This document shows, one piece after another, positions 1-63,746 of a stretch of 64,000 bases of DNA; position 1 is the first letter of the stretch; every line of letters starts with the position of its first letter. A program made the position numbers and the translations under genes. The stretch covers positions 41,609-105,608 of the IMG/VR virus record IMGVR_UViG_3300006467_000134; one strand, written 5' to 3'. The notes below the pieces were generated by a model. The model had not been told where the DNA came from. It did not search any database and saw only the letters and a program-made list of their open reading frames with translations. This stretch comes from a virus. Taxonomy: Duplodnaviria > Caudoviricetes.

Positions 1-1293
1 AACGTTGGTCGTGGCGAAATCACGTTCCATCAGTCGTTCGAAGATTTCTGTGGCTCGATCATAAGTGATTGCATCGCCGTAAATACAACCAACATGTGGA
101 TCCAGCTCTTTGAAACCTTTGGAATTGAAGGTAGTACCAAACTCTTCAGCCAGTAGGCGGACAACTCCCTTAATCTCAGGCTCTTTGATTTCTCGTCCTT
201 CCAATGTCACGTAGCCATCGGAACACTTCATAGCGTCTGCCCGATAGTGAATCAAAGACAGGTAAAGATCCTGGTCTTTCTTCAACTCTCGTCGAGCTTC
301 CTCGCAGGTTCCATCGTAATCCATAGTACGATATCCGCACAGGATTAGTACTGGATCGCCAGAATCAGGTCGGAAGACGACTTTCCCGTCTCGCTTCATG
401 ATCTTGTCCTTCAGGTGAGGGGCAATCTCAAGCAGCACTTTCCAAAGGTCCCACGTATCGATGACAATACTGATGAAACCTTCTGGATAAAGCTCCGAGA
501 TCAGTCGATCTACAGTGTGGAGCTCGTTTACCTTACCACCAGCACACATCACGGCATGTTCAGTCGCTGGCACGGAAACAGACGTATCCCGGGGAGCCTT
601 GTACCAGTGCCGAACCGCGGCCTTACCTGGTAGAGTGTCACTGCCTTTGAAGAACAACAGGTGACCCATGTCAGTGGTAATCGAAGATTCCACACTGCTC
701 ATACCACGCATCGAGAAGTTGTGCCCTTGGAAGGGAACAAAATCAGGGTTGCCAGTACGCTCAGCATAGTCACTCATCAGCTCCCAGAAACGACGAGCAA
801 TGGTAGCCGCTGTGATTGGGTTCCAAATAGTATTCTGACATACGGTTTCAATCGCATTGGTTAACCAGCCAAAGTTTGGATCAGTATTCTCAATAGTAGC
901 CAGTGGAACACCAATTGGACACAATACGCCTTCGGGAAGAGCCTTGATACGAAGTGGGAGGTACCCCAGGTCATGGAGTTCACCATAACGTGAGACGTCC
1001 ACAGCACCTGGTCCAAAGTACTCGTCGAAGTATTCTTTGAGCTCTGCCAGAACCCGGGCCTTTGGACGATCAAAGAAATTCGTGTTGAACTCAACTACCA
1101 AGTACTTCAGCATGAAATACTGTAGACCAAAGTTCACAACATGGTTCACACCTGGAATCCGGCTGGTACGAGGAGTAATGTTGGCATTTACGTACTCCGT
1201 GTTTTCCGGGTATTGTGGTGGGTGAGATATCTTGTAGGCATCTGCCAGAATGATTGGGTTGATGCGAAGGTCACTGTATTCAAATCGTGTCAT
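1..1293 (-). CDS. nadV: Nicotinamide phosphoribosyltransferase-like protein (Nampt / Namat-like), 3'-truncated by the window edge
   Basis: Not in the ORF track; translated by hand from ATG 1293: MTRFEYSDLRINPIILADAYKISHPPQYPENTEYV...LHDLGYLPLRIKALPEG...QGHNFSMRGMSSVES...VPATEHAVM...VVFRPDSGDP...YGDAIT. These are NAMPT family motifs. ATGA overlap with the upstream Prs-like gene. Confidence 0.93.
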   Translation of the reverse strand, partial: MTRFEYSDLRINPIILADAYKISHPPQYPENTEYVNANITPRTSRIPGVNHVVNFGLQYFMLKYLVVEFNTNFFDRPKARVLAELKEYFDEYFGPGAVDVSRYGELHDLGYLPLRIKALPEGVLCPIGVPLATIENTDPNFGWLTNAIETVCQNTIWNPITAATIARRFWELMSDYAERTGNPDFVPFQGHNFSMRGMSSVESSITTDMGHLLFFKGSDTLPGKAAVRHWYKAPRDTSVSVPATEHAVMCAGGKVNELHTVDRLISELYPEGFISIVIDTWDLWKVLLEIAPHLKDKIMKRDGKVVFRPDSGDPVLILCGYRTMDYDGTCEEARRELKKDQDLYLSLIHYRADAMKCSDGYVTLEGREIKEPEIKGVVRLLAEEFGTTFNSKGFKELDPHVGCIYGDAITYDRATEIFERLMERDFATTNV

Positions 1294-2067: not shown

Positions 2068-2796
2068 TCATTCCTCTACAATCTGGAGTTTGACACCGAA
2101 CGCCCGTTCGATAAAGCCAATGTTTGCTTTGAGACTCTGATTGTACTCTTCAACATTGTCACTTGTCAACATCGTTGCACATAAAAACTCCAATTTTCCG
2201 GAATCTGACTCAATACCATGGACTTTCTCGATGATAGTGAACGTTTTTTCCAGTAATTGGTGCTGTCCTTCAGTCAAAGCGAACTTGTGTTTCACCCACT
2301 TTACGTCCTCTTCGTCAGAGGAGCTCTTCGGTTTTGCCGATTCTTCGTCAGCGTCGTGGATAATTTCCTTCAACTTAGTCTGGGTGTTCTGTTCGGCAAT
2401 GTCAAGCATCTCATCAACATTGTCCTGGTCCACCCGGGGTAGAAGCATTTTCAGCTTACCCCAGCCAACACTATTGATACGTTCTTCAGGCTGGCCGAGT
2501 TTTAGAACAAATGTCTCGTAAATACGAATGAAGGTAGAAGTAGACGTGCGGTCGTAGTTGTGTTCAATAAACGCATACTGTTCCACACTGGTGAAATTTT
2601 TAGTTTCTCCGTCTTCCTCGTAGGTCCACTGCTTGTAATATTCCTTCTCCCGGACCTCATAGAGAAGGTGACCCAACGCCACATTGGTTAGGTCTTTAAC
2701 CTGACGCAGCTTCACCAAGGCTTCCCGAATAGCATCAGGTCGGTGCTCACTATCTTCAGGTAAGGTTACTAGTTCATTCAAGTTCATCGTCGTCAT
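2068..2796 (-). CDS. Hypothetical protein, DUF3102-like helical domain
   Basis: LGHLLYEVREKEYYKQW...FTSVEQY...IRIYETF pattern; ATG 2796 preceded by GGAGGA. Confidence 0.6.
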   Translation of the reverse strand: MTTMNLNELVTLPEDSEHRPDAIREALVKLRQVKDLTNVALGHLLYEVREKEYYKQWTYEEDGETKNFTSVEQYAFIEHNYDRTSTSTFIRIYETFVLKLGQPEERINSVGWGKLKMLLPRVDQDNVDEMLDIAEQNTQTKLKEIIHDADEESAKPKSSSDEEDVKWVKHKFALTEGQHQLLEKTFTIIEKVHGIESDSGKLEFLCATMLTSDNVEEYNQSLKANIGFIERAFGVKLQIVEE

Positions 2797-12737: not shown

Positions 12738-13664
12738 TCAGAGTGTCTTTCTAAATTCGTCTTTTGTGAACTCGCCTGAATCTTTTACTTGGCCCTTTGA
12801 GTTCAGAAAGGACCAGTAAACACGAAAGATTAAGCGAGATGGATACATAGACCGAAGTTCAGTCCATCCATGCTCTCCCGCTTTATCTTGGTCGAAGTAG
12901 CAGTACGGTACCTTACCACTACCTGCGATGAGGTCTACCTGTGAGCTTGAGATGTTAGCCGTCCATGTACAACATGTATCATAGCCTTCCTCGTTCGCCC
13001 ATGGGTAGATGTTTAGCATATCTGTGAAGCCTTCTACTACAATTAGTTTGGGGTTGTCACTGAAGTGATCTTCGCCCCCAAGGAATGTGGCTGTATCACA
13101 GAAATACTTTAGGTGCTTTTGTGCCGGGTTATCTTCAATTGACCGCCCGATCATGCCCAAAAGCCCATGTTTATCCCTTACAGGAAAGATTACTCGTTTC
13201 TGCCGCGGATCCCACCGTAGTCCGAATGTATCACATACGGACAGATCGTATCCACGATCTTGCTCCAAGTATTCCTCTGCAGGCGTTCCTCGAAAATCAG
13301 GGAACGTCTGCAGTAAGTCGTCATCAAAATACTCTTTCACTTTCCGAGTTTTTGTTTCAACGACCTTTCGTAGCTCCATTTTTAGTCGGTAGGTATCTTC
13401 ATTCCAGACCTTAAGCAGAAGTGCTGCTTCAGGGTCATTACTTAAACGATGATATTCCGATAAAAACTTGTGGTAGGAGCCCTTCATACCACAAGCGTAG
13501 CACTGAAAAAAATCAATGTCTGGCCAGATAACCAACGATTTGCTGTTATCCGTGCCTTTGGCGTGAGTCCAGGGAGCAAACGGACAATGACAAATGTACC
13601 CCTTGGAATATTCTTTGTGAATAATTCCCAGGTTTGTCAAGTCTTGGCTTATGTTCCAGGACAT
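12738..13664 (-). CDS. dnaG: DNA primase (CHC2 Zn finger + TOPRIM)
   Basis: CPFAPWTH...FQCYACG, RVIFPVRD, VVEGFTDM, YFDQDKAG, KDSGE. Confidence 0.9.
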   Translation of the reverse strand: MSWNISQDLTNLGIIHKEYSKGYICHCPFAPWTHAKGTDNSKSLVIWPDIDFFQCYACGMKGSYHKFLSEYHRLSNDPEAALLLKVWNEDTYRLKMELRKVVETKTRKVKEYFDDDLLQTFPDFRGTPAEEYLEQDRGYDLSVCDTFGLRWDPRQKRVIFPVRDKHGLLGMIGRSIEDNPAQKHLKYFCDTATFLGGEDHFSDNPKLIVVEGFTDMLNIYPWANEEGYDTCCTWTANISSSQVDLIAGSGKVPYCYFDQDKAGEHGWTELRSMYPSRLIFRVYWSFLNSKGQVKDSGEFTKDEFRKTL

Positions 13665-22087: not shown

Positions 22088-22338
22088 TTAGGCAGACTCC
22101 CTTTTGGGGTACAGTCCTCACATGAATCACAAATGCGAAGATCCTTGTCATTTGGTGGTGCGTGTGTAGCACATCGAAGCTGATATAGTGCACAGTCATA
22201 GACGTATTCTCTGTAGCGAGATCCACCACAAGTACAGCCTTTTCCATTAGGCCTATAGCGTGATGGATCTTTTTTGCTACGATAAATACAAGAGTTGATC
22301 TCTTTATCTGTAAAACCGTTTGGGTTCTCTTTACTCAT
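22084..22338 (-). CDS. Small Cys-rich protein
   Basis: Eight Cys in ~84 aa (CIYR, CTCGG, VYDC, C, CDSCEDC); start 22338 coupled to the upstream stop. Confidence 0.6.
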   Translation of the reverse strand: MSKENPNGFTDKEINSCIYRSKKDPSRYRPNGKGCTCGGSRYREYVYDCALYQLRCATHAPPNDKDLRICDSCEDCTPKGSLPK

Positions 22339-38371: not shown

Positions 38372-38994
38372 TAGATTCTAGGGTTTGGATCATCCATGTC
38401 CGCCAATTCTGCCTGGATCGTCGTATGATGCCATAGACCTCTGATGGTCTTTTGGTGCTCATAACGAATGATCTTGTAGTAAATTGAAGGACCGGTGAAC
38501 CGGTAGAAATCGAAACCGTCTGGAAAGTCATTACAATACCGGAAACTGGTAATTGTGTAGTCTGTTCCATCATAGGTTAAGGTATAGTCACTCTCACCAA
38601 CAGTAATTTGAGTAGTCCCATTAACCCACTTGGTTCCATCCCAAGTTAGAAGTACATCCCCTCCAGGAGTGGAGATCCACATTTGAGGCCCAGTATTATC
38701 AGGGGCTCCCTGAGGCACTTGAACGTTAGGTAAAGTACCCCAGTCAATACGAACAAAATCACCGTTCTCAATCTTACTTGGGATCGAGGGTCCGGTGATT
38801 AATATCCGTCTCATGAAAGCTGAAGATTCTCCCATCCCTTTAGGGTGGTCGAAGTTTTCAGAGAAGAACCTAAGTTCCCCGACTCTTCCTTGCACGTTTG
38901 CGTGGAGTACTGTGTCCGTTGTCCCCGGCACTATCTGTCCCATCACTACCCGTTCCGACCGCCTCACTAGGTTCAGCCGGTGGATGCTCGTCAT
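38371..38994 (-). CDS. Putative head closure protein
   Basis: Position in the neck cluster; start uncertain (38994 or 39051). Confidence 0.5.
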   Translation of the reverse strand: MTSIHRLNLVRRSERVVMGQIVPGTTDTVLHANVQGRVGELRFFSENFDHPKGMGESSAFMRRILITGPSIPSKIENGDFVRIDWGTLPNVQVPQGAPDNTGPQMWISTPGGDVLLTWDGTKWVNGTTQITVGESDYTLTYDGTDYTITSFRYCNDFPDGFDFYRFTGPSIYYKIIRYEHQKTIRGLWHHTTIQAELADMDDPNPRI

Positions 38995-47499: not shown

Positions 47500-47522
47500 A
47501 GTAAAGGACCTTTCAAAGTTAA

Positions 47523-47599
47523 ATGGCTGCCATCATCAGGCACTGCCCACCACGGTCAGTGCGAAACAAGGCAGTCCGAAGACTGCCCTGCTTTTCGGC
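47523..47599 (-). ncRNA. Type II hammerhead ribozyme (downstream of HNH), predicted cleavage UUC^ between 47563 and 47562
   Basis: Minus strand: GCC-GAAA-AGCAGGGCAGTC-TTCG-GACTGCCTTGTT-TC^-GCACTG-ACCGTGGTGGG-CAGTGC-CTGATGA-T-GGC-A-GCCAT. The full core is present, with one extra U after A9. Loop I GUGGU can pair with the 3' GCCAU. Confidence 0.82.
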
Positions 47600-47601
47600 T
47601 T

Positions 47602-50910: not shown

Positions 50911-52655
50911 TAAGTTTGCTCACTTTCAGGATCAACATTATCATCCGTAGATGGAGGAGTATCCTGCGTTTGAGTCGCTGTTTGGTCTACAGCAGTCGTT
51001 GGTAAATCATTTAAATCCTGAATCTTCAAAATCTGTCCACCAGATGTGCGGAGGAAGTTAACATTACCACCAGGAATGGATTCCATTCCAAGGTTAGTAC
51101 GAACTTCATTGATATCCTTAACACCATTCAACAAGTACATTTGATCAACTTCAGCCTGCATTCGCATATCGCGAACATCGTAAGGATCAAACTTGATGTA
51201 GCTGTGAATAATTCCCAGGCCTTTAGAGAGTAGCCTGTAGATTTGGTTTTGCCAGTATTTCTGGCGAGGTGTTACGATACGATCTTTGTACAGTTCAGCT
51301 TGAGACAATCCTTTACCTGAGCCAAGCTCTGCGGACTCAGCGATACCAAGAATTGCTGGGCTTGTTCCATGAGCTACCTGAATAGCTTGTGAGTTTGCTT
51401 TGTAAGTCTCAAGGAAGTCTGCTTCCTTTCGATCAGCCTCAACTCGTTCGAACTTTACAGAGACAGTCTTTCCGGCTCTATGTGGAATCGCCAATACCAT
51501 TGTCTTATGGTATTGACCACGTACTTCCTTCGAAAAGTATTCCGTAATCGTCTTGCGGAACTCTGCATCGACATTGGCACCCTCAACAATAACAGCATAT
51601 CGTGGTACTGTATTGTTGTCGAAGAATTGACTAGTATAGTCTTTGATTCGGGTGTTCGTTTGAATCGCTGAGAGAGCTGGTATTGCATCACAGAAGCCAT
51701 AGTAGATAGTATTAGGGTGTGAGTTAACTAACCACAAAACTTCATTTGCTGATTCCAAGACATTATCAGTAGTTTCTCCAGTTTTTGGATCTACGAGGTT
51801 CCACTCGGCTTTAGCCTTATCCAACGGCCCGTGCTTGACTGGGTCGTACGGTTCATAATAATCACGTTTCTTGGATCCGACTTTAATTGATTTTCGTACA
51901 CGAACCTTCTCACCGAAATTCTGATAGTAGGTATATTGCGTTGTACCATTGACATCGCTCTCCTCTACAAAACCTTCCCAGTTACGAAGGACTTTTATCC
52001 TAGCAGCCGGAATGTGTTGGATGTGCTCGATCTTTTTCGTGATGGGGTTACGAGTAACCTCGATAGCAGCCCATCCAATAGCTTCCCAATCTTGGGCTGC
52101 ATTTCGGAGAACTTCTTCAAATCCCAACCGCGGATTGCAGTCATGGATAAAGGTTCTAATCTCTTCCAGTTCGGAATTGAACAACGACTTTGGAATTACT
52201 TCCTGACCCTCAGCTAGCTGTTCAATCTCGTCGTCCTCGATGACCTTTTTGAAGGAGTCAATCGTGTAGTTTCGATTTACAGCATCTGTGACTTTGGTTC
52301 GTACTGCTCGGTAGTGAACTTCATTAGTGTGTAAAAGATCAGCTACTTTTCGTGGGCAGTATGGAGGATCAATAACGTGCCATTTACCTTGCAGAGCATA
52401 ATGGTAAATGTCTGACTGATTAATCTCATCTGCACTCTGATTTAACCCTTCGATACCTTTAAGAACTTCTGTTCTTTTAAAGCCAGGGATATCAATTTCG
52501 GTGTAGGTATCCACCTTTCTGGTGGAAAGACCACTCCAAATTTCAGAGATTCCCTTTGCTAGGTCAGCAGATAAGGTGAAGTGAACTTCTCCGTCAGAGC
52601 CTTCAGTAATGAAGCCAGTGACTACAGGCTCTTCGAATTCAGTTGTTTGCTTCAT
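50910..52655 (-). CDS. Portal protein
   Basis: IDPPY, DWEAIGWAAIEVTR, HIPA, YYG, FFDNNTVP, AHGTSPAILG, INEVRTNLG..SIPGG. Confidence 0.92.
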   Translation of the reverse strand: MKQTTEFEEPVVTGFITEGSDGEVHFTLSADLAKGISEIWSGLSTRKVDTYTEIDIPGFKRTEVLKGIEGLNQSADEINQSDIYHYALQGKWHVIDPPYCPRKVADLLHTNEVHYRAVRTKVTDAVNRNYTIDSFKKVIEDDEIEQLAEGQEVIPKSLFNSELEEIRTFIHDCNPRLGFEEVLRNAAQDWEAIGWAAIEVTRNPITKKIEHIQHIPAARIKVLRNWEGFVEESDVNGTTQYTYYQNFGEKVRVRKSIKVGSKKRDYYEPYDPVKHGPLDKAKAEWNLVDPKTGETTDNVLESANEVLWLVNSHPNTIYYGFCDAIPALSAIQTNTRIKDYTSQFFDNNTVPRYAVIVEGANVDAEFRKTITEYFSKEVRGQYHKTMVLAIPHRAGKTVSVKFERVEADRKEADFLETYKANSQAIQVAHGTSPAILGIAESAELGSGKGLSQAELYKDRIVTPRQKYWQNQIYRLLSKGLGIIHSYIKFDPYDVRDMRMQAEVDQMYLLNGVKDINEVRTNLGMESIPGGNVNFLRTSGGQILKIQDLNDLPTTAVDQTATQTQDTPPSTDDNVDPESEQT

Positions 52656-59475: not shown

Positions 59476-60297
59476 TTATTCGTCCTGAGGAAGCTCCTCA
59501 AGCATTTTTCCAATGACGTAAGGCTTTTCCCCAATAATGATTGGTGTTTTCTTGAAGGTACCCTTTATGAACTGGGTACATTGAGGATTAGCAATTTCTT
59601 TTCGCACCTCATCAGTAAAGACAATAGGTGCTCCGACTTTTAATACTCTCTCGTCCTGCTCAATAAACTCGGAGGCTTGCTCAAACGAGTACATTCCAAG
59701 GATGTTAATCCCTTGCCAGAACGATGAACGTTGAACACTGAAGAACCTGCAATATTCATCGTTTAGGTACCATCGATCAGCGGACATATCATGAATCCAG
59801 GCAGGACCTGAGAAGACATTATTGAAAACTTGCTCAAGTAATGTCTTACTATCGGTGATGGCTGGGTTTTCCTCATAGAACCGAATTAGGTTCTTGCATT
59901 CTTCTAGATCATCTCTGCACCCAGCTACCGCGGTATTGAGATCAGCGTTCGCCTGGATCAATACCTTAATTTGCTCTGCCATTTGCTCAAAGGTAGATTT
60001 GTTTTGCTCTTTGAGCTCTCGGTAATAATCAATCATTACCTGATGTTCTGATTTCTTGAGCTCGGCCTGCATTTCTGCCTTTACCTTCTCAATTTCACGA
60101 GCCTTATCTACTTCTTTCTGAAGGAGCTCATTTTCATACTCTGCTTTTTTCTTTTTGGCTTCCTGCCGTTCCTTGTACCAAAAACCGACTCCTGTGATTA
60201 TACTACTGAGAATAATTCCCCCAATAGTTACCCATGGAATTGATCCGTCCGGATTTGCTTGTAATGGGATTTCGGTTTGGGCTAGTAGTTCAAACAT
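59476..60297 (-). CDS. Membrane-anchored coiled-coil protein with C-terminal PAS-like domain
   Basis: N-terminal TM, coiled coil, then PAWIHD...YLNDEYCRFF...G......F.EQDERVL..G.PI.F.DE...KKTPI. Confidence 0.7.
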   Translation of the reverse strand: MFELLAQTEIPLQANPDGSIPWVTIGGIILSSIITGVGFWYKERQEAKKKKAEYENELLQKEVDKAREIEKVKAEMQAELKKSEHQVMIDYYRELKEQNKSTFEQMAEQIKVLIQANADLNTAVAGCRDDLEECKNLIRFYEENPAITDSKTLLEQVFNNVFSGPAWIHDMSADRWYLNDEYCRFFSVQRSSFWQGINILGMYSFEQASEFIEQDERVLKVGAPIVFTDEVRKEIANPQCTQFIKGTFKKTPIIIGEKPYVIGKMLEELPQDE

Positions 60298-60358
60298 GGT
60301 GATGACCTATATTGGGCCGGCGAGGGGCGTAACTTATTTACTGTTAGGACAAAAAGAA

Positions 60359-61008
60359 TGCCTCGTGCTGCAGGTATACAAAGGTGGGCAACCCAGATTT
60401 GATTACAACTGAGTATGCTAGGCAGAAAAAGAGCGAAGCGAATGAGAAATCCGACTTGGTTTTTACCAATAGGGTATCAAGGAAAAGAACATGGTGTGAC
60501 AAGCGTCGAGCTGTCACTACATACTCTGATTGGGAACCTGTTGGGCGTTCACTACATCCCAGGTGATACACCGGGCTACGATACGTAGCTCTGTATTATC
60601 TTAGGCTACGCGAAAGCGGCTCCCGCCTGCTTTATCTCTGTAGGTAGTGGATCCTATATTGGAGAACCTGTCGGTTTTTTCACTTACACTTCGTTCCAGT
60701 TAGTATTACTAGGCGTAGCCAGGCTTTTGTTAAAAGCTAGGCTTGCCAGGCAACCTTACGATTGCAAAGCAATACCGGATGACCATTAGATAAGACGTTC
60801 GTCCCATGGTCATAAAAAAGGTGTTAGAGCACCGTAAAACTCTCTTGGAAAACACCATATCAACAGGTGTCACCGGGTTACTCCCGTAGGGGTTGGCTGG
60901 GTTCTGATTACCACCAGCACTGTTTTCCTCAATCTTACTCACGACCCTTTTGAGCGGGCAGATAGTCACTGGTAAGATACTTGTGACTGTCCAAAGTAGA
61001 GATGGACG
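60359..61008 (+). ncRNA. Candidate large structured non-coding RNA (family unknown)
   Basis: No credible ORF. More than 15 helices found by eye, including long-range 60431-60455/60670-60696 and 60604-60611/60713-60720, with numerous G-U pairs on the plus strand. Confidence 0.6.
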
Positions 61009-61013
61009 CTAAC

Positions 61014-61042
61014 ATTATACCAATCGGTAGATATTAGGTCAA
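61014..61042 (-). promoter_or_regulatory. Sigma70-type promoter pointing into the virion operon
   Basis: TTGACC (61042-61037), 17 bp spacer, TATAAT (61019-61014). Confidence 0.8.
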
Positions 61043-61070
61043 GCAGAAAACGGAATATTAGAGAATTTTA

Positions 61071-61107
61071 AAGAAAAAACCCTCAAAGGATGATCCCCTG
61101 AGGGTTT
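61071..61107 (-). terminator. Intrinsic terminator insulating the leftward promoter
   Basis: AAACCCTCAGGGGA-TCA-TCCTTTGAGGGTTT followed by TTTCTTT on the minus strand. Confidence 0.65.
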
Positions 61108-61202
61108 AGCTGCTCGTAACATAAGTGCCAGGCTGTGAATAATTCCCAGAGCGTAGAGTTCGGGTCGGTTTGACCAATTTTGGGAATTTTCTTGAAAACT
61201 AG

Positions 61203-61231
61203 TTGACTTATTTTCCGCAGTTCGGTATAAT
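61203..61231 (+). promoter_or_regulatory. Sigma70-type promoter for the rightward unit
   Basis: TTGACT (61203-61208), 17 bp spacer, TATAAT (61226-61231). Confidence 0.82.
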
Positions 61232-61370
61232 GTAGGAAAATCCCACAAAATGCCATAAAAGCCGGGCCTCTACTTGTTAGTACGCCCTTAGACGAGCAAA
61301 TCTACAAGAAACCGAGAAATTTCTGTATTTTCTCCATTTTTCTCTAAACTCTAGCTTTGGGTGCTATTTT

Positions 61371-61862
61371 GTGACTCTTCTGCAGGAAATTAACAAACAA
61401 TTCGGCAATTGGGACTCTTTCTACGAAATACATGAGTCCTTCATTCGTCAAAAGTTCTCCGAGACTACCAGGTCGCCAAAAACAGGCGATGCTTATGATA
61501 CCGCTTTAGCTGAGGGGTACATTCGCTGTTGCTCACAAGATCCAGATGTATCTATGGAAATTCACGAGCAATTCGCCCGCATGGTTATTGGTGGTCATAA
61601 TGCTGAGCGATCCAGGGAAAACCGTCACCGCTTTCGACAAACCTCCCGGGATGAGTTGAATTACCACACCGCTGATGTACACCAAGTTAGAAGCTACCAC
61701 GCCAAGATTGAAGAGCTGGAAGCTAAACTAAACCCTACTGAGTACAAGGTGGCTATGTATTTCTTTGTTCACGAGTGGACACGCACCCAAATAGCCAAAG
61801 AATTGAATATCGATTCACGAAAAGTTTCTTCCATCATTTCCCACGTAAAGAAAATTGCTTAA
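61371..61862 (+). CDS. Sigma-factor-like protein (region 4 HTH)
   Basis: C-terminal LNPTEYKVAMYFFVHEWTRTQIAKELNIDSRKVSSI. Confidence 0.65.
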   Translation: MTLLQEINKQFGNWDSFYEIHESFIRQKFSETTRSPKTGDAYDTALAEGYIRCCSQDPDVSMEIHEQFARMVIGGHNAERSRENRHRFRQTSRDELNYHTADVHQVRSYHAKIEELEAKLNPTEYKVAMYFFVHEWTRTQIAKELNIDSRKVSSIISHVKKIA

Positions 61863-63746
61863 ATGTCTGACGTATCAAATCAGATTCTCTCCGATATCAC
61901 AGTCTGGATGAAATATTCTCGGTATCTTCCAAACAAGCGTAGGCGTGAAACTTGGGAAGAGCTGGTAACTAGCAACAAAGAGATGCACCAGCGAAAATAC
62001 CCTGAGATCTCCGATGAGATTGAGGAAGCATACAAGTTTGTCTACGAGAAGAAAGTTCTTCCGTCGATGCGATCCATGCAGTTTGCTGGTAAGCCGATTG
62101 AGGTTAATCCTGCTCGGATCTATAACTGCTCATTCTTACCCGCGGACTCACCAGATGCTTTTGCCGAGATTATGTTTCTCTTGCTAGGTGGCACTGGTGT
62201 AGGTTTCTCGGTCCAGAAAGCCCACGTACGCCGTCTTCCTCCTGTCATGGGTCCTCTACGACCTGAAGGACGTAAACGGGCTAAGAGGTATCTTGTAGGC
62301 GATTCTATTGAGGGTTGGGCTGACGCTGTAAAGGTACTGGTAGAATCATATTTCTACTCCAAACCAGAAATCGATTTCGACTTCAGCGACATTCGCTCTA
62401 AGGGTACGCAGCTTGTCACAAGTGGTGGTAAGGCTCCTGGTCCCGAACCTCTACGATTATGCCTCACGCATATCAAGAGTATTCTTGAAAATGCTATCCA
62501 GGAGCGTGGTCCTGGAACAAAGCTGAAGCCAATTGAAGTACATGACATTATCTGCCTAATCGCAGATGCTGTTCTGGCTGGTGGTATTCGACGAGCCGCT
62601 TTGATCTCCCTGTTCTCCAAAGACGATAAGGAAATGCTGTTTTGTAAGTCAGGAGCTTGGTGGGAAAAAGCACCATGGCGAGGACGTGCCAACAATTCTG
62701 CTGTTTTTGTTCGGTCTCGGGCCAAGAAAGAGGACTTCGATGACTTTTGGGAAGTCGTCAAGAACTCTGGATCCGGGGAACCAGGAATCTATTTTACCAA
62801 TGATGCGAGCTGGGGAACTAATCCCTGCGTAGAAATTGGTCTCCGTCCATTCCAAATGTGCAACCTGACTGAGATCAACGCAGGGTGTATTGAAACTCAG
62901 GAAGACCTAAACAATGCTGCTCGGGCAGCTTCGTTCATTGGTACACTGCAGGCCGGCTACACTGATTTCCACTACTTGCGTGATGAATGGCAAGAAACCT
63001 GTGAGAAAGATGCGTTGATTGGTGTGTCAATGACAGGCATTTGCTCTGGCAATGTCTTGAGCTTGGATACCACAGAGGCAGCCAATGTAGTAACTCAAGA
63101 AAATGCACGAGTAGCCAAGCTAATTGGAATTAACCCAGCTGCTCGATGCTGTTGTGTTAAGCCAGCCGGTACCACTAGTTTGACATTGGGAACGTCATCT
63201 GGAATTCACGCTTGGCACAATTATTTCTACCTTCGACGAATTCGTGTTAACAAGAACGAAGCCATCTATAAGTACTTGTTGAGGCATCATCCAGAGCTTG
63301 TAGAAGATGAGTCGTTCGATCCACTGAACACCGCGGTAATCACTATTCCTCAGAAGGCTCCAGAAGGGGCTATTCTGCGACATGAAGCTGCCCTTGAAAC
63401 ATTGGCACGGGTCAAACACTTTGCCACTTCCTGGGTTAAGCCTGGTCACAGAACTGGAGTTAATGGACACAACGTAAGTTGCACCATTAGTGTCAAGGAC
63501 GATGAATGGGACTCTGTTGGATCCTGGATGTGGAAGAATCGAGAGCATTACAATGGAATTGCTGTTCTTCCTTACGATGGTGGTACCTACGTACAAGCTC
63601 CATTCGAAGATTGCGACAAAAAGACCTTTGAAAAGCTATCCAAGTCTCTCACAGCTATTGATCTAACCAAGATCAGGGAAACTCAGGATAACACCAACCT
63701 AGCTGGAGAGATTGCTTGTGGACCACAAGGCTGTGAAATTAAGTAA
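61863..63746 (+). CDS. nrdJ: Class II (adenosylcobalamin-dependent) ribonucleotide reductase
   Basis: RRETWEE, LPSMR, YNCSF, GTGVGFSV, GGIRRAALI, TNPCVEI, CNLTEIN, VKPAGT, YVQAPFE, C-terminal CGPQGC. Confidence 0.95.
   Translation: MSDVSNQILSDITVWMKYSRYLPNKRRRETWEELVTSNKEMHQRKYPEISDEIEEAYKFVYEKKVLPSMRSMQFAGKPIEVNPARIYNCSFLPADSPDAFAEIMFLLLGGTGVGFSVQKAHVRRLPPVMGPLRPEGRKRAKRYLVGDSIEGWADAVKVLVESYFYSKPEIDFDFSDIRSKGTQLVTSGGKAPGPEPLRLCLTHIKSILENAIQERGPGTKLKPIEVHDIICLIADAVLAGGIRRAALISLFSKDDKEMLFCKSGAWWEKAPWRGRANNSAVFVRSRAKKEDFDDFWEVVKNSGSGEPGIYFTNDASWGTNPCVEIGLRPFQMCNLTEINAGCIETQEDLNNAARAASFIGTLQAGYTDFHYLRDEWQETCEKDALIGVSMTGICSGNVLSLDTTEAANVVTQENARVAKLIGINPAARCCCVKPAGTTSLTLGTSSGIHAWHNYFYLRRIRVNKNEAIYKYLLRHHPELVEDESFDPLNTAVITIPQKAPEGAILRHEAALETLARVKHFATSWVKPGHRTGVNGHNVSCTISVKDDEWDSVGSWMWKNREHYNGIAVLPYDGGTYVQAPFEDCDKKTFEKLSKSLTAIDLTKIRETQDNTNLAGEIACGPQGCEIK

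Follow-up and report, generated by a model that had tools for sequence, protein, structure and literature searches.

The gene-free region from which the two gene arms of a 105.6-kb phage diverge contains a conserved folded RNA element, which most likely belongs with the long untranslated leader preceding the leftward operon, and not with a GOLLD-like RNA of the plus strand. In the specific form preferred here, to which we assign a probability of about 0.45, a minus-strand leader of roughly 710 nt has a conserved promoter-proximal core, which would control elongation or termination of transcription into a leftward operon of about 84 kb. The element is best classed as a structured phage leader or regulatory RNA; it has no family in Rfam and is found so far in two lineages.

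A first-pass annotation had described the region as a single plus-strand RNA of 650-850 nt. All 23 helices that it lists are present and complementary, at the coordinates given, and the region is gene-free, as it had proposed. The single RNA itself was not supported: conservation in a distant relative is confined to the right third (about 60763-60990, here called domain B), with only 28-43% identity in domain A and the 5' hairpin.

The divergent control region and its relatives

The source record is 105,608 bp long, with direct terminal repeats of 127 bp; the window, i.e. the whole stretch of DNA analysed, is its final 64 kb (64,000 nt). Genes of the plus arm start at 61371 and continue across the record end to about 17 kb of the record. 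The minus arm, about 84 kb long, begins at 60297 and extends leftwards as far as about 17.6 kb of the record; it includes the genes for a 273-aa protein, a 1237-aa protein, a gpA-type terminase and the portal, as well as head and tail genes. The gap between the arms (1073 nt) is the only stretch of at least 300 nt in the window not covered by an ORF of at least 100 aa, and is the master divergent control region of the phage. Its left neighbour is the first gene of the minus arm, coding for the 273-aa protein (59476-60297), and its right neighbour is a gene for a sigma-like protein (61371-61862, plus strand), followed by a class II ribonucleotide reductase gene. The features identified within the gap are collected in Table 1.

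Table 1. Features of the divergent control region, in window coordinates; helices and blocks of domain B are given in the minus sense.
Feature	Position	Strand	Basis or remark
Divergent control region, gene-free	60298..61370	.	ORF maps; coding scores; Pfam/PHROGs negative
Irregular 66-nt hairpin	60359..60424	+	z -2.05 to -2.45 plus; -0.15 to -0.5 (chance level) minus
Domain A, 266 nt, closing helix of about 20 bp (60431-60455 with 60670-60696)	60431..60696	+	strand from folding only
Domain B, conserved structured core, promoter-proximal in the putative minus transcript	60763..60990 (about)	-	blastn, nhmmer
Hairpin AUGACC/GGUCAU and invariant CCGGUAUU, 3' end of core	60771..60813	-	alignment
Small hairpin GGUG/CACC, then invariant U6 at about +190	60814..60833	-	G-C to U-A in relative
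Long-range helix 60847-60851/60924-60928	60847..60928	-	three consecutive compensatory double changes
Enclosed helices 60854-60857/60894-60897 and 60863-60873/60877-60887	within 60847..60928	-	carry invariant AACCCGGUGAC
Invariant 15-nt block, GUGAGUAAGAUUGAG	60928..60942	-	GUAAGAU complementary to hairpin-1 loop
Hairpin 1, 13-nt invariant loop, AAGUAUCUUACCA	60962..60990	-	stem: one compensatory, one C-G to U-G change
P_left, TTGACC-17-TGnTATAAT, 11/12 matches	61014..61042	-	sequence scan; predicted start site near 61007
Intrinsic terminator, hairpin 61077-61107, 14-bp stem then UUUUUUCUUU	61067..61107	-	upstream of P_left
Palindromic motif CTGnGAATAATTCCCAG, candidate operator	61133..61149	.	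between the two promoters; also in L131 and L124 control regions
P_right, TTGACT-17-TATAAT, for sigma-like gene and reductase	61203..61231	+	hexamers and spacer conserved in L120

The gap is non-coding: its small ORFs have coding scores in the spurious range, lack ribosome-binding sites, and match no family in Pfam or PHROGs. Two further candidate signals were discarded. A Rho-utilisation signature (excess of C over G) was rejected, as the C/G ratio shows no consistent rut-like pattern and disagrees between this phage and its relative L131; a shared promoter motif for a phage sigma factor was rejected because k-mer enrichment upstream of genes returned only ribosome-binding sites.

Relatives of the region were obtained by an exhaustive HMMER search with the sigma-like protein, which identified two remote homologues, 39% and 37% identical. 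The contigs carrying the first of them (L120, L131, L135 and others) are syntenic with this phage: in L131 and L120 a 277-aa first gene on the minus strand (38% identity) is followed by a gap of 1191 nt, the sigma-like gene (39%) and a class I reductase. The sample that yielded L131 also contains a terminase relative (78% identity). Near-identical contigs, which match one or other of the two lineages at 99.6-100% identity, add no informative changes; the evidence for conservation of domain B consists of two lineages. A third lineage, L124, has the same gene order, with a gap of 1.2 kb which shares the palindrome of Table 1, but lacks domain B. The reductases of these phages are of different classes, the gene following the sigma-like gene in the window (61863-63746) being of the class II (B12-type), and those of the relatives (L131 3400-7110) coding for class I small and large subunits, the latter with an intein containing a LAGLIDADG domain.

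Other searches were unproductive. Phage and plasmid collections gave no DNA match, and searches with the 273-aa protein, the 1237-aa protein and the terminase led to relatives in other contexts, or to contigs ending before the gap. No similarity to the gap was found in 29 reductase-bearing viral loci (nhmmer, blastn, R1 and R2). Scans for exact 17-mers in viral and genome collections, and a palindrome scan, returned only chance-level hits, with no covariance-model match. In Rfam 15, the whole window at gathering score, and 60200-61450 and the L131 gap at E up to 10, gave nothing beyond noise-level hits; there was no match to the curated models of GOLLD, ROOL, OLE, HEARO, group I and II introns, RNase P, tmRNA or riboswitches. 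ARAGORN found no tmRNA, and the lack of a group I/II intron, tmRNA or RNase P signature, already noted in the first-pass annotation, was borne out. In a different part of the window (47521-47600, minus strand) a type II hammerhead ribozyme model gave a match of 35.1 bits (E 4.5e-05), just short of its gathering score of 37.

Two near-consensus promoters, P_left (of the sigma-70 type) and P_right, diverge within the gap as inverted twins. P_left would read leftwards into domain B and through the whole structured region. The equivalent promoter of the relative (L120 580-553, L131 2484-2457), also on the minus strand, scores 12 matches out of 12, with the TG of an extended -10, and the position of the promoter is conserved between the two phages. 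Apart from domain B, the region of P_right is the only part of the gap conserved in the relative; here the alignment (61197-61370 with L120 835-1004) shows that P_right is conserved through the spacer, and not in the hexamers alone. Three conserved blocks, CTCTACTTGT, TTACAA-AAA and ATTTTCTCCA, are found in its 130-nt 5' UTR, and are likely to be either binding sites or a second leader element.

The terminator located upstream of P_left has a hairpin more stable on the minus strand (-20.2 kcal/mol) than on the plus strand (-15.7 kcal/mol), and a hairpin followed by U7 can be read from the sequence at the analogous place in L131. A weak His_leader-like match, at noise level (E 0.012), was also obtained on the minus strand, at 61071-61198. 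Terminator and match together hint that a short transcript may be made from the minus strand, or that the two promoters are separated by an insulator.

The palindrome CTGnGAATAATTCCCAG, with core GGGAATnATTCCC, recurs in the window at 60206-60220, 13615-13634, 51202-51221 and 44091, in addition to the copy in Table 1, and elsewhere in the genome at 22149-22171 and 38974-38993. It is found in L131 at about 1901-1917 and 2672-2688, in L124 at about 192, 1106 and 1293, and also in a further relative, G001. It is present in the divergent control regions of all three related lineages, where a conserved dimeric DNA-binding protein probably uses it as operator.

The surroundings of the leftward promoter differ with respect to tRNA sequences. 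In L131, a tRNA-Met (2524-2594, minus strand) lies directly upstream of the promoter, on the same strand; L124 has, at an analogous place (about 990-1003, minus strand), a T-arm-like remnant, GGTTCGATTCC, not called as a tRNA by ARAGORN. Neither is present near the leftward promoter of this phage, the window being devoid of tRNAs according to ARAGORN; the two tRNAs of the genome are at 29-30 kb of the record.

The conserved core, domain B

Domain B is 73% identical to its counterpart in L120 and L131 over the aligned 60765-60987 (blastn; nhmmer E 1.6e-35), whereas the flanking proteins of the two phages are only 38-39% identical. By sliding comparison, identity is 65-77% over 60773-61008, against 28-43% in domain A and 40-60% in the coding flanks. 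Since the minus-strand promoter directly adjoins the conserved block, this begins at about +1 of the predicted transcript in the relative and about +20 in this phage; beyond about +245 the sequence is not conserved. Indels of 1 and 2 nt, together with a broken frame in L131, rule out a conserved ORF. A coding reading of the whole gap was rejected on the same indels and split frame, on the low coding scores and on the lack of family matches.

The core measures about 230-240 nt, with ten helices predicted by alifold. The pairing of GUAAGAU with the loop of hairpin 1, first proposed as GTAAGAT/ATCTTAC, joins two blocks 100% conserved in the distant relative, and is a candidate pseudoknot, for which covariation is uninformative, as both partners are invariant. 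A crossing helix, GGCTACGC/GCGTAGCC, put forward in the same annotation, is 8 bp long and falls in non-conserved sequence; a few such pairings are expected by chance in 670 nt.

Covariation was analyzed by RNAalifold. The minus strand yields 53 pairs, all formed in both sequences, with 10 compensatory double changes and an energy of -40.5 kcal/mol, and the plus strand 47 pairs, with 8 compensatory double changes and -33.45 kcal/mol; the alignment includes two lineages only, so that statistics are thin, and the structure is derived from the same alignment. None of the 53 minus-strand pairs is broken, and sliding the partners by 1-3 columns leaves 0-1 compensatory changes. In a non-circular check, where one sequence is folded alone and the other scored, 5/7 and 3/4 double changes were kept on the minus strand, 5/7 and 4/4 on the plus strand. 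Domain B is conserved and, in the two-lineage alignment, covarying; the covariation among homologues at first called for is found here, in 10 compensatory pairs, and not in domain A, of which no homologue was found.

The stretch 60697-61008 is unremarkable in comparison with shuffled sequences (z about -2.2 on both strands), and when sequences are folded singly the MFE of domain B is slightly lower in the plus sense. The strand is mainly decided by context, namely by the 12/12 minus-strand promoter of the relative directly adjoining the conserved block. Two further observations contribute to the assignment. Several one-sided changes in covarying helices produce G-U pairs on the minus strand and A-C mismatches on the plus strand, and only in the minus sense is the U6 preceded by a covarying hairpin; a U6 following a hairpin has a known role, as a pause or termination signal, in that sense only. 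We infer that the minus strand is the functional one. The two phages also have leaders of similar length (710 nt here, about 730 nt in the relative) and share a AAAAAGAGC motif, 100-130 nt ahead of the start codon.

The U6 lies at about +172 in the relative and about +190 in this phage. Its hairpin has a mutually exclusive alternative of similar energy in both phages; with a 4-bp stem only, it is weak for a terminator, and was not flagged by the consensus scan. The succession of a consensus promoter, a covarying hairpin and an invariant U6, with no conservation beyond about +245, would also be expected if domain B were an independent minus-strand RNA of about 190 nt, running from P_left to the hairpin and U6, with the rest of the gap as unrelated spacer. 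Such an RNA, which may be likened to the lambda 6S (PR'-tR') transcript or to a trans-acting small RNA, seems to us quite unlikely, since beyond the U6 a further 45 nt or so are conserved, including another hairpin and the invariant CCGGUAUU, the stem has 4 bp only, and a search of 60298-60430 revealed no other promoter from which the 273-aa gene might be transcribed.

Domain A and the choice of strand

Domain A is the most stable of these elements and is lineage-specific. Its MFE on the plus strand is -103.8 kcal/mol, compared with -71.1 +/- 4.2 for dinucleotide shuffles (z -7.8; z -4.2 on the minus strand), and a fold of 60425-60702 on the plus strand gave z -6.14 with 200 shuffles. The initial expectation of folding beyond shuffles is supported for 60431-60696 on the plus strand (z -6.1 to -7.8) and does not extend to 60697-61008. 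After correction for composition, domain A ranks 4 among 1584 window-strands genome-wide. Several other 266-nt windows, at 19.4-22.4 kb, 12.4 kb and 15.9 kb of the record (outside the window), equal or exceed its composition-corrected stability; they are located in gene-poor gaps. In that part of the genome Rfam finds two tRNAs only.

The helix model proposed for domain A survived in part. The partition function assigns a probability near 1 to the long-range closing helix, to GTGAC/GTCAC and to the 18-bp hairpin at 60561-60601. The inner helices TTGGT/ACCAA, AGGGTAT/ATACTCT, TGGGA/TCCCA and GCCTGC/GTAGGT have probabilities near 0, and other pairings form instead. Domain A also contains direct repeats (60505-60557 and 60521-60674; 18 nt at 78% and 24 nt at 71% identity), which provide 60451-60463 with two partners (60533-44 or 60663-74), so that it could switch between two folds.

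Domain A and the 5' hairpin are at background identity (28-43%) in the syntenic relative, and no homologue of domain A was found by a single-sequence covariance model (R1), by blastn or by nhmmer; R1 retrieved nothing from L131 even with filters off.

Several measures favour the plus strand. Ensemble diversity of domain A is 21.8 on the plus strand, where helices have p >0.85, and 62.4 on the minus strand, and its strand asymmetry ranks 3 and 11 of 792 windows. The counterpart of domain A in L131, although non-homologous, also folds better on the plus strand (z -4.48, against -1.93 on the minus strand). The strands become equal when DNA parameters are used (z -4.15 and -3.77), hence G-U pairs account for the lead of the plus strand, an indication of RNA. 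The argument by which non-Watson-Crick positions would be G-U consistently on the plus strand is partly a matter of ascertainment, as the plus MFE structure has 11 G-U among 100 pairs, and that of the minus strand 6 among 90. Preference for the plus strand, as originally claimed, is still favoured by energy, ensemble diversity and strand asymmetry; promoter, terminator and the context of the conserved block speak against it.

Because domain A and its L131 counterpart fold clearly better in the plus sense, a plus-strand or antisense RNA stays a live rival, somewhat unlikely in our judgement. This RNA, discrete, non-coding and some 650-850 nt in length, would run antisense to the leftward leader; the hairpin and domain A would make up its variable 5' part, and domain B its conserved 3' part. 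It might work in trans, or it might restrain expression of the late operon as an antisense brake. Folding z-scores, a defined ensemble and strand asymmetry speak for it in both phages, as does the G-U origin of the plus-strand advantage, and an invariant 10-bp long-range pairing of UACCGGAUGAC with GUCACUGGUA includes one G-U on the plus strand. A conserved 3' and a variable 5' part are, moreover, the pattern described for GOLLD (PMC12286853). However, no plus-strand sigma-70-like promoter precedes the structured region in either phage, only -10-like hexamers being present, and no convincing plus-strand terminator follows it: the hairpin at 61077-61107 favours the minus strand, and the one at 61141-61193, suggested at first as the 3' end, is at chance level (z -0.22). 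In both phages, the minus-strand start site marks the exact end of the conserved block; at positions of several covarying helices the plus strand has A-C and the minus strand G-U; and Rfam offers no match.

Could the folding be a by-product of inverted repeats in an element acting as DNA, such as a replication origin or an array of protein-binding sites? The gap is at the minimum of the cumulative GC skew, at the point where the gene arms diverge, the palindrome occurs in the control regions of all three lineages, and GGCTACG is repeated four times inside 150 nt. This explanation is nevertheless considered very improbable: compensatory changes that maintain pairing while the sequence changes are the signature of a folded strand, not of a binding site, the energy difference between plus and minus vanishes with DNA parameters, and neither iterons nor an AT-rich unwinding block were found.

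The proposed leader and known systems

In the minus-strand leader, which remains the preferred reading, transcription from P_left (61042-61014) would start an untranslated leader of roughly 710 nt, leading to the 273-aa gene of the leftward arm. Its first 240 nt or so, corresponding to domain B, would be a conserved, pseudoknot-capable RNA acting in cis on the transcribing polymerase. Domain B might load an antitermination state, like the HK022 put RNA, or it might be a sensor with an attenuator, operating through the small hairpin and the U6 at about +190. In either case, it would decide the passage of polymerase through a distal, lineage-specific leader into the late genes. The distal leader would comprise domain A and the 66-nt hairpin, each followed by a U-tract in the minus sense: UUUUUC after the closing stem of domain A, and UUCUUUUUGU after the hairpin, 60 nt ahead of the start codon. 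Control of elongation or termination is what we infer as the function, and the roles of domain A and of the distal U-tracts are likewise proposals. Some data run against this leader. Domain A and its counterpart in L131 fold better on the plus strand, contrary to what one would expect of an RNA made from the minus strand; the 66-nt hairpin does not exceed chance on the minus strand, L124 lacks domain B, and the hairpin before the U6 has 4 bp.

An element of about 230 nt, covarying and at the same position in two phages whose neighbouring proteins are 38-39% identical, makes domain B a concrete candidate for an RNA by which phages of an uncultured lineage may control their late transcription. 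That domain A, among the most stable folds of the genome, prefers a strand without a visible promoter is an oddity. To our knowledge, few RNA elements act from the very start of a phage transcript on a whole operon. The best understood of these, HK022 put, is small and confined to lambdoid phages. Within HK022, putL starts at about +3 of the PL transcript, is independent of protein factors, and has a reach of at least 10 kb (PMC9378689). As in put, the core described here would be a structured RNA placed immediately after a strong sigma-70 promoter from which a long phage operon is transcribed, with hairpin 1 at about +1 (relative) or +20 (this phage); the invariant loop of hairpin 1 includes AAGUAU, which fits the -10-like NANNAT pattern discussed for putL. 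By analogy with put, action in cis of the nascent transcript may be supposed in this phage as well. Unlike put, which has two stem-loops in about 70 nt, the core spans about 230-240 nt, with at least 7 helices and a candidate pseudoknot, is followed by a variable structured leader of about 460 nt, and shows no sequence similarity to it, a DNA search of the phage database giving no match.

The PR'-6S-tR' region of lambda offers a second comparison, where likewise a constitutive-looking consensus promoter, an untranslated leader and signals resembling terminators precede a late operon, which here begins with a small membrane protein and includes the gpA-type terminase. Lambda tR' is found at +194, a distance similar to that of the U6 (about +172 to +190). 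The leader, however, is of 710 nt instead of 194, and the RNA is conserved and, in the alignment, covarying; unlike in Q-dependent antitermination, no Q-like protein was identified in this phage, and the terminator stem is very short. Riboswitch and attenuator leaders resemble the core in the structured 5' domain, the small hairpin with U-tract and the mutually exclusive alternative hairpin, and differ from it in that no Rfam aptamer is recognised, the platform stem is of 4 bp, and about 500 nt of leader still precede the gene.

With GOLLD and ROOL the element shares a phage origin, a size of several hundred nt and a high degree of structure, with pseudoknots which are here predicted. GOLLD env-38 lies downstream of a Met-tRNA (PMC12286853), and in L131 a tRNA-Met is found directly upstream, on the same (minus) strand. 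The element differs from those families in that it matches neither of their Rfam models at E up to 10 and only about 230 nt of it are conserved; in this phage the nearest tRNA genes are more than 30 kb away, and its place is between a promoter and a coding operon instead of inside a tRNA island. Extending these analogies, domain B might represent a new class of large promoter-proximal RNA, put-like, about three times larger and with a pseudoknot, reprogramming host RNA polymerase without factors for the operon of about 84 kb; or else the whole stretch of 650-700 nt might be a new ornate plus-strand RNA of phages, of separate origin from GOLLD and ROOL, in which the 3' core is conserved and the 5' domain, though very stable, evolves fast. 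Novelty of this order, on either strand, is a doubtful proposition, for which put and GOLLD are the nearest points of reference.
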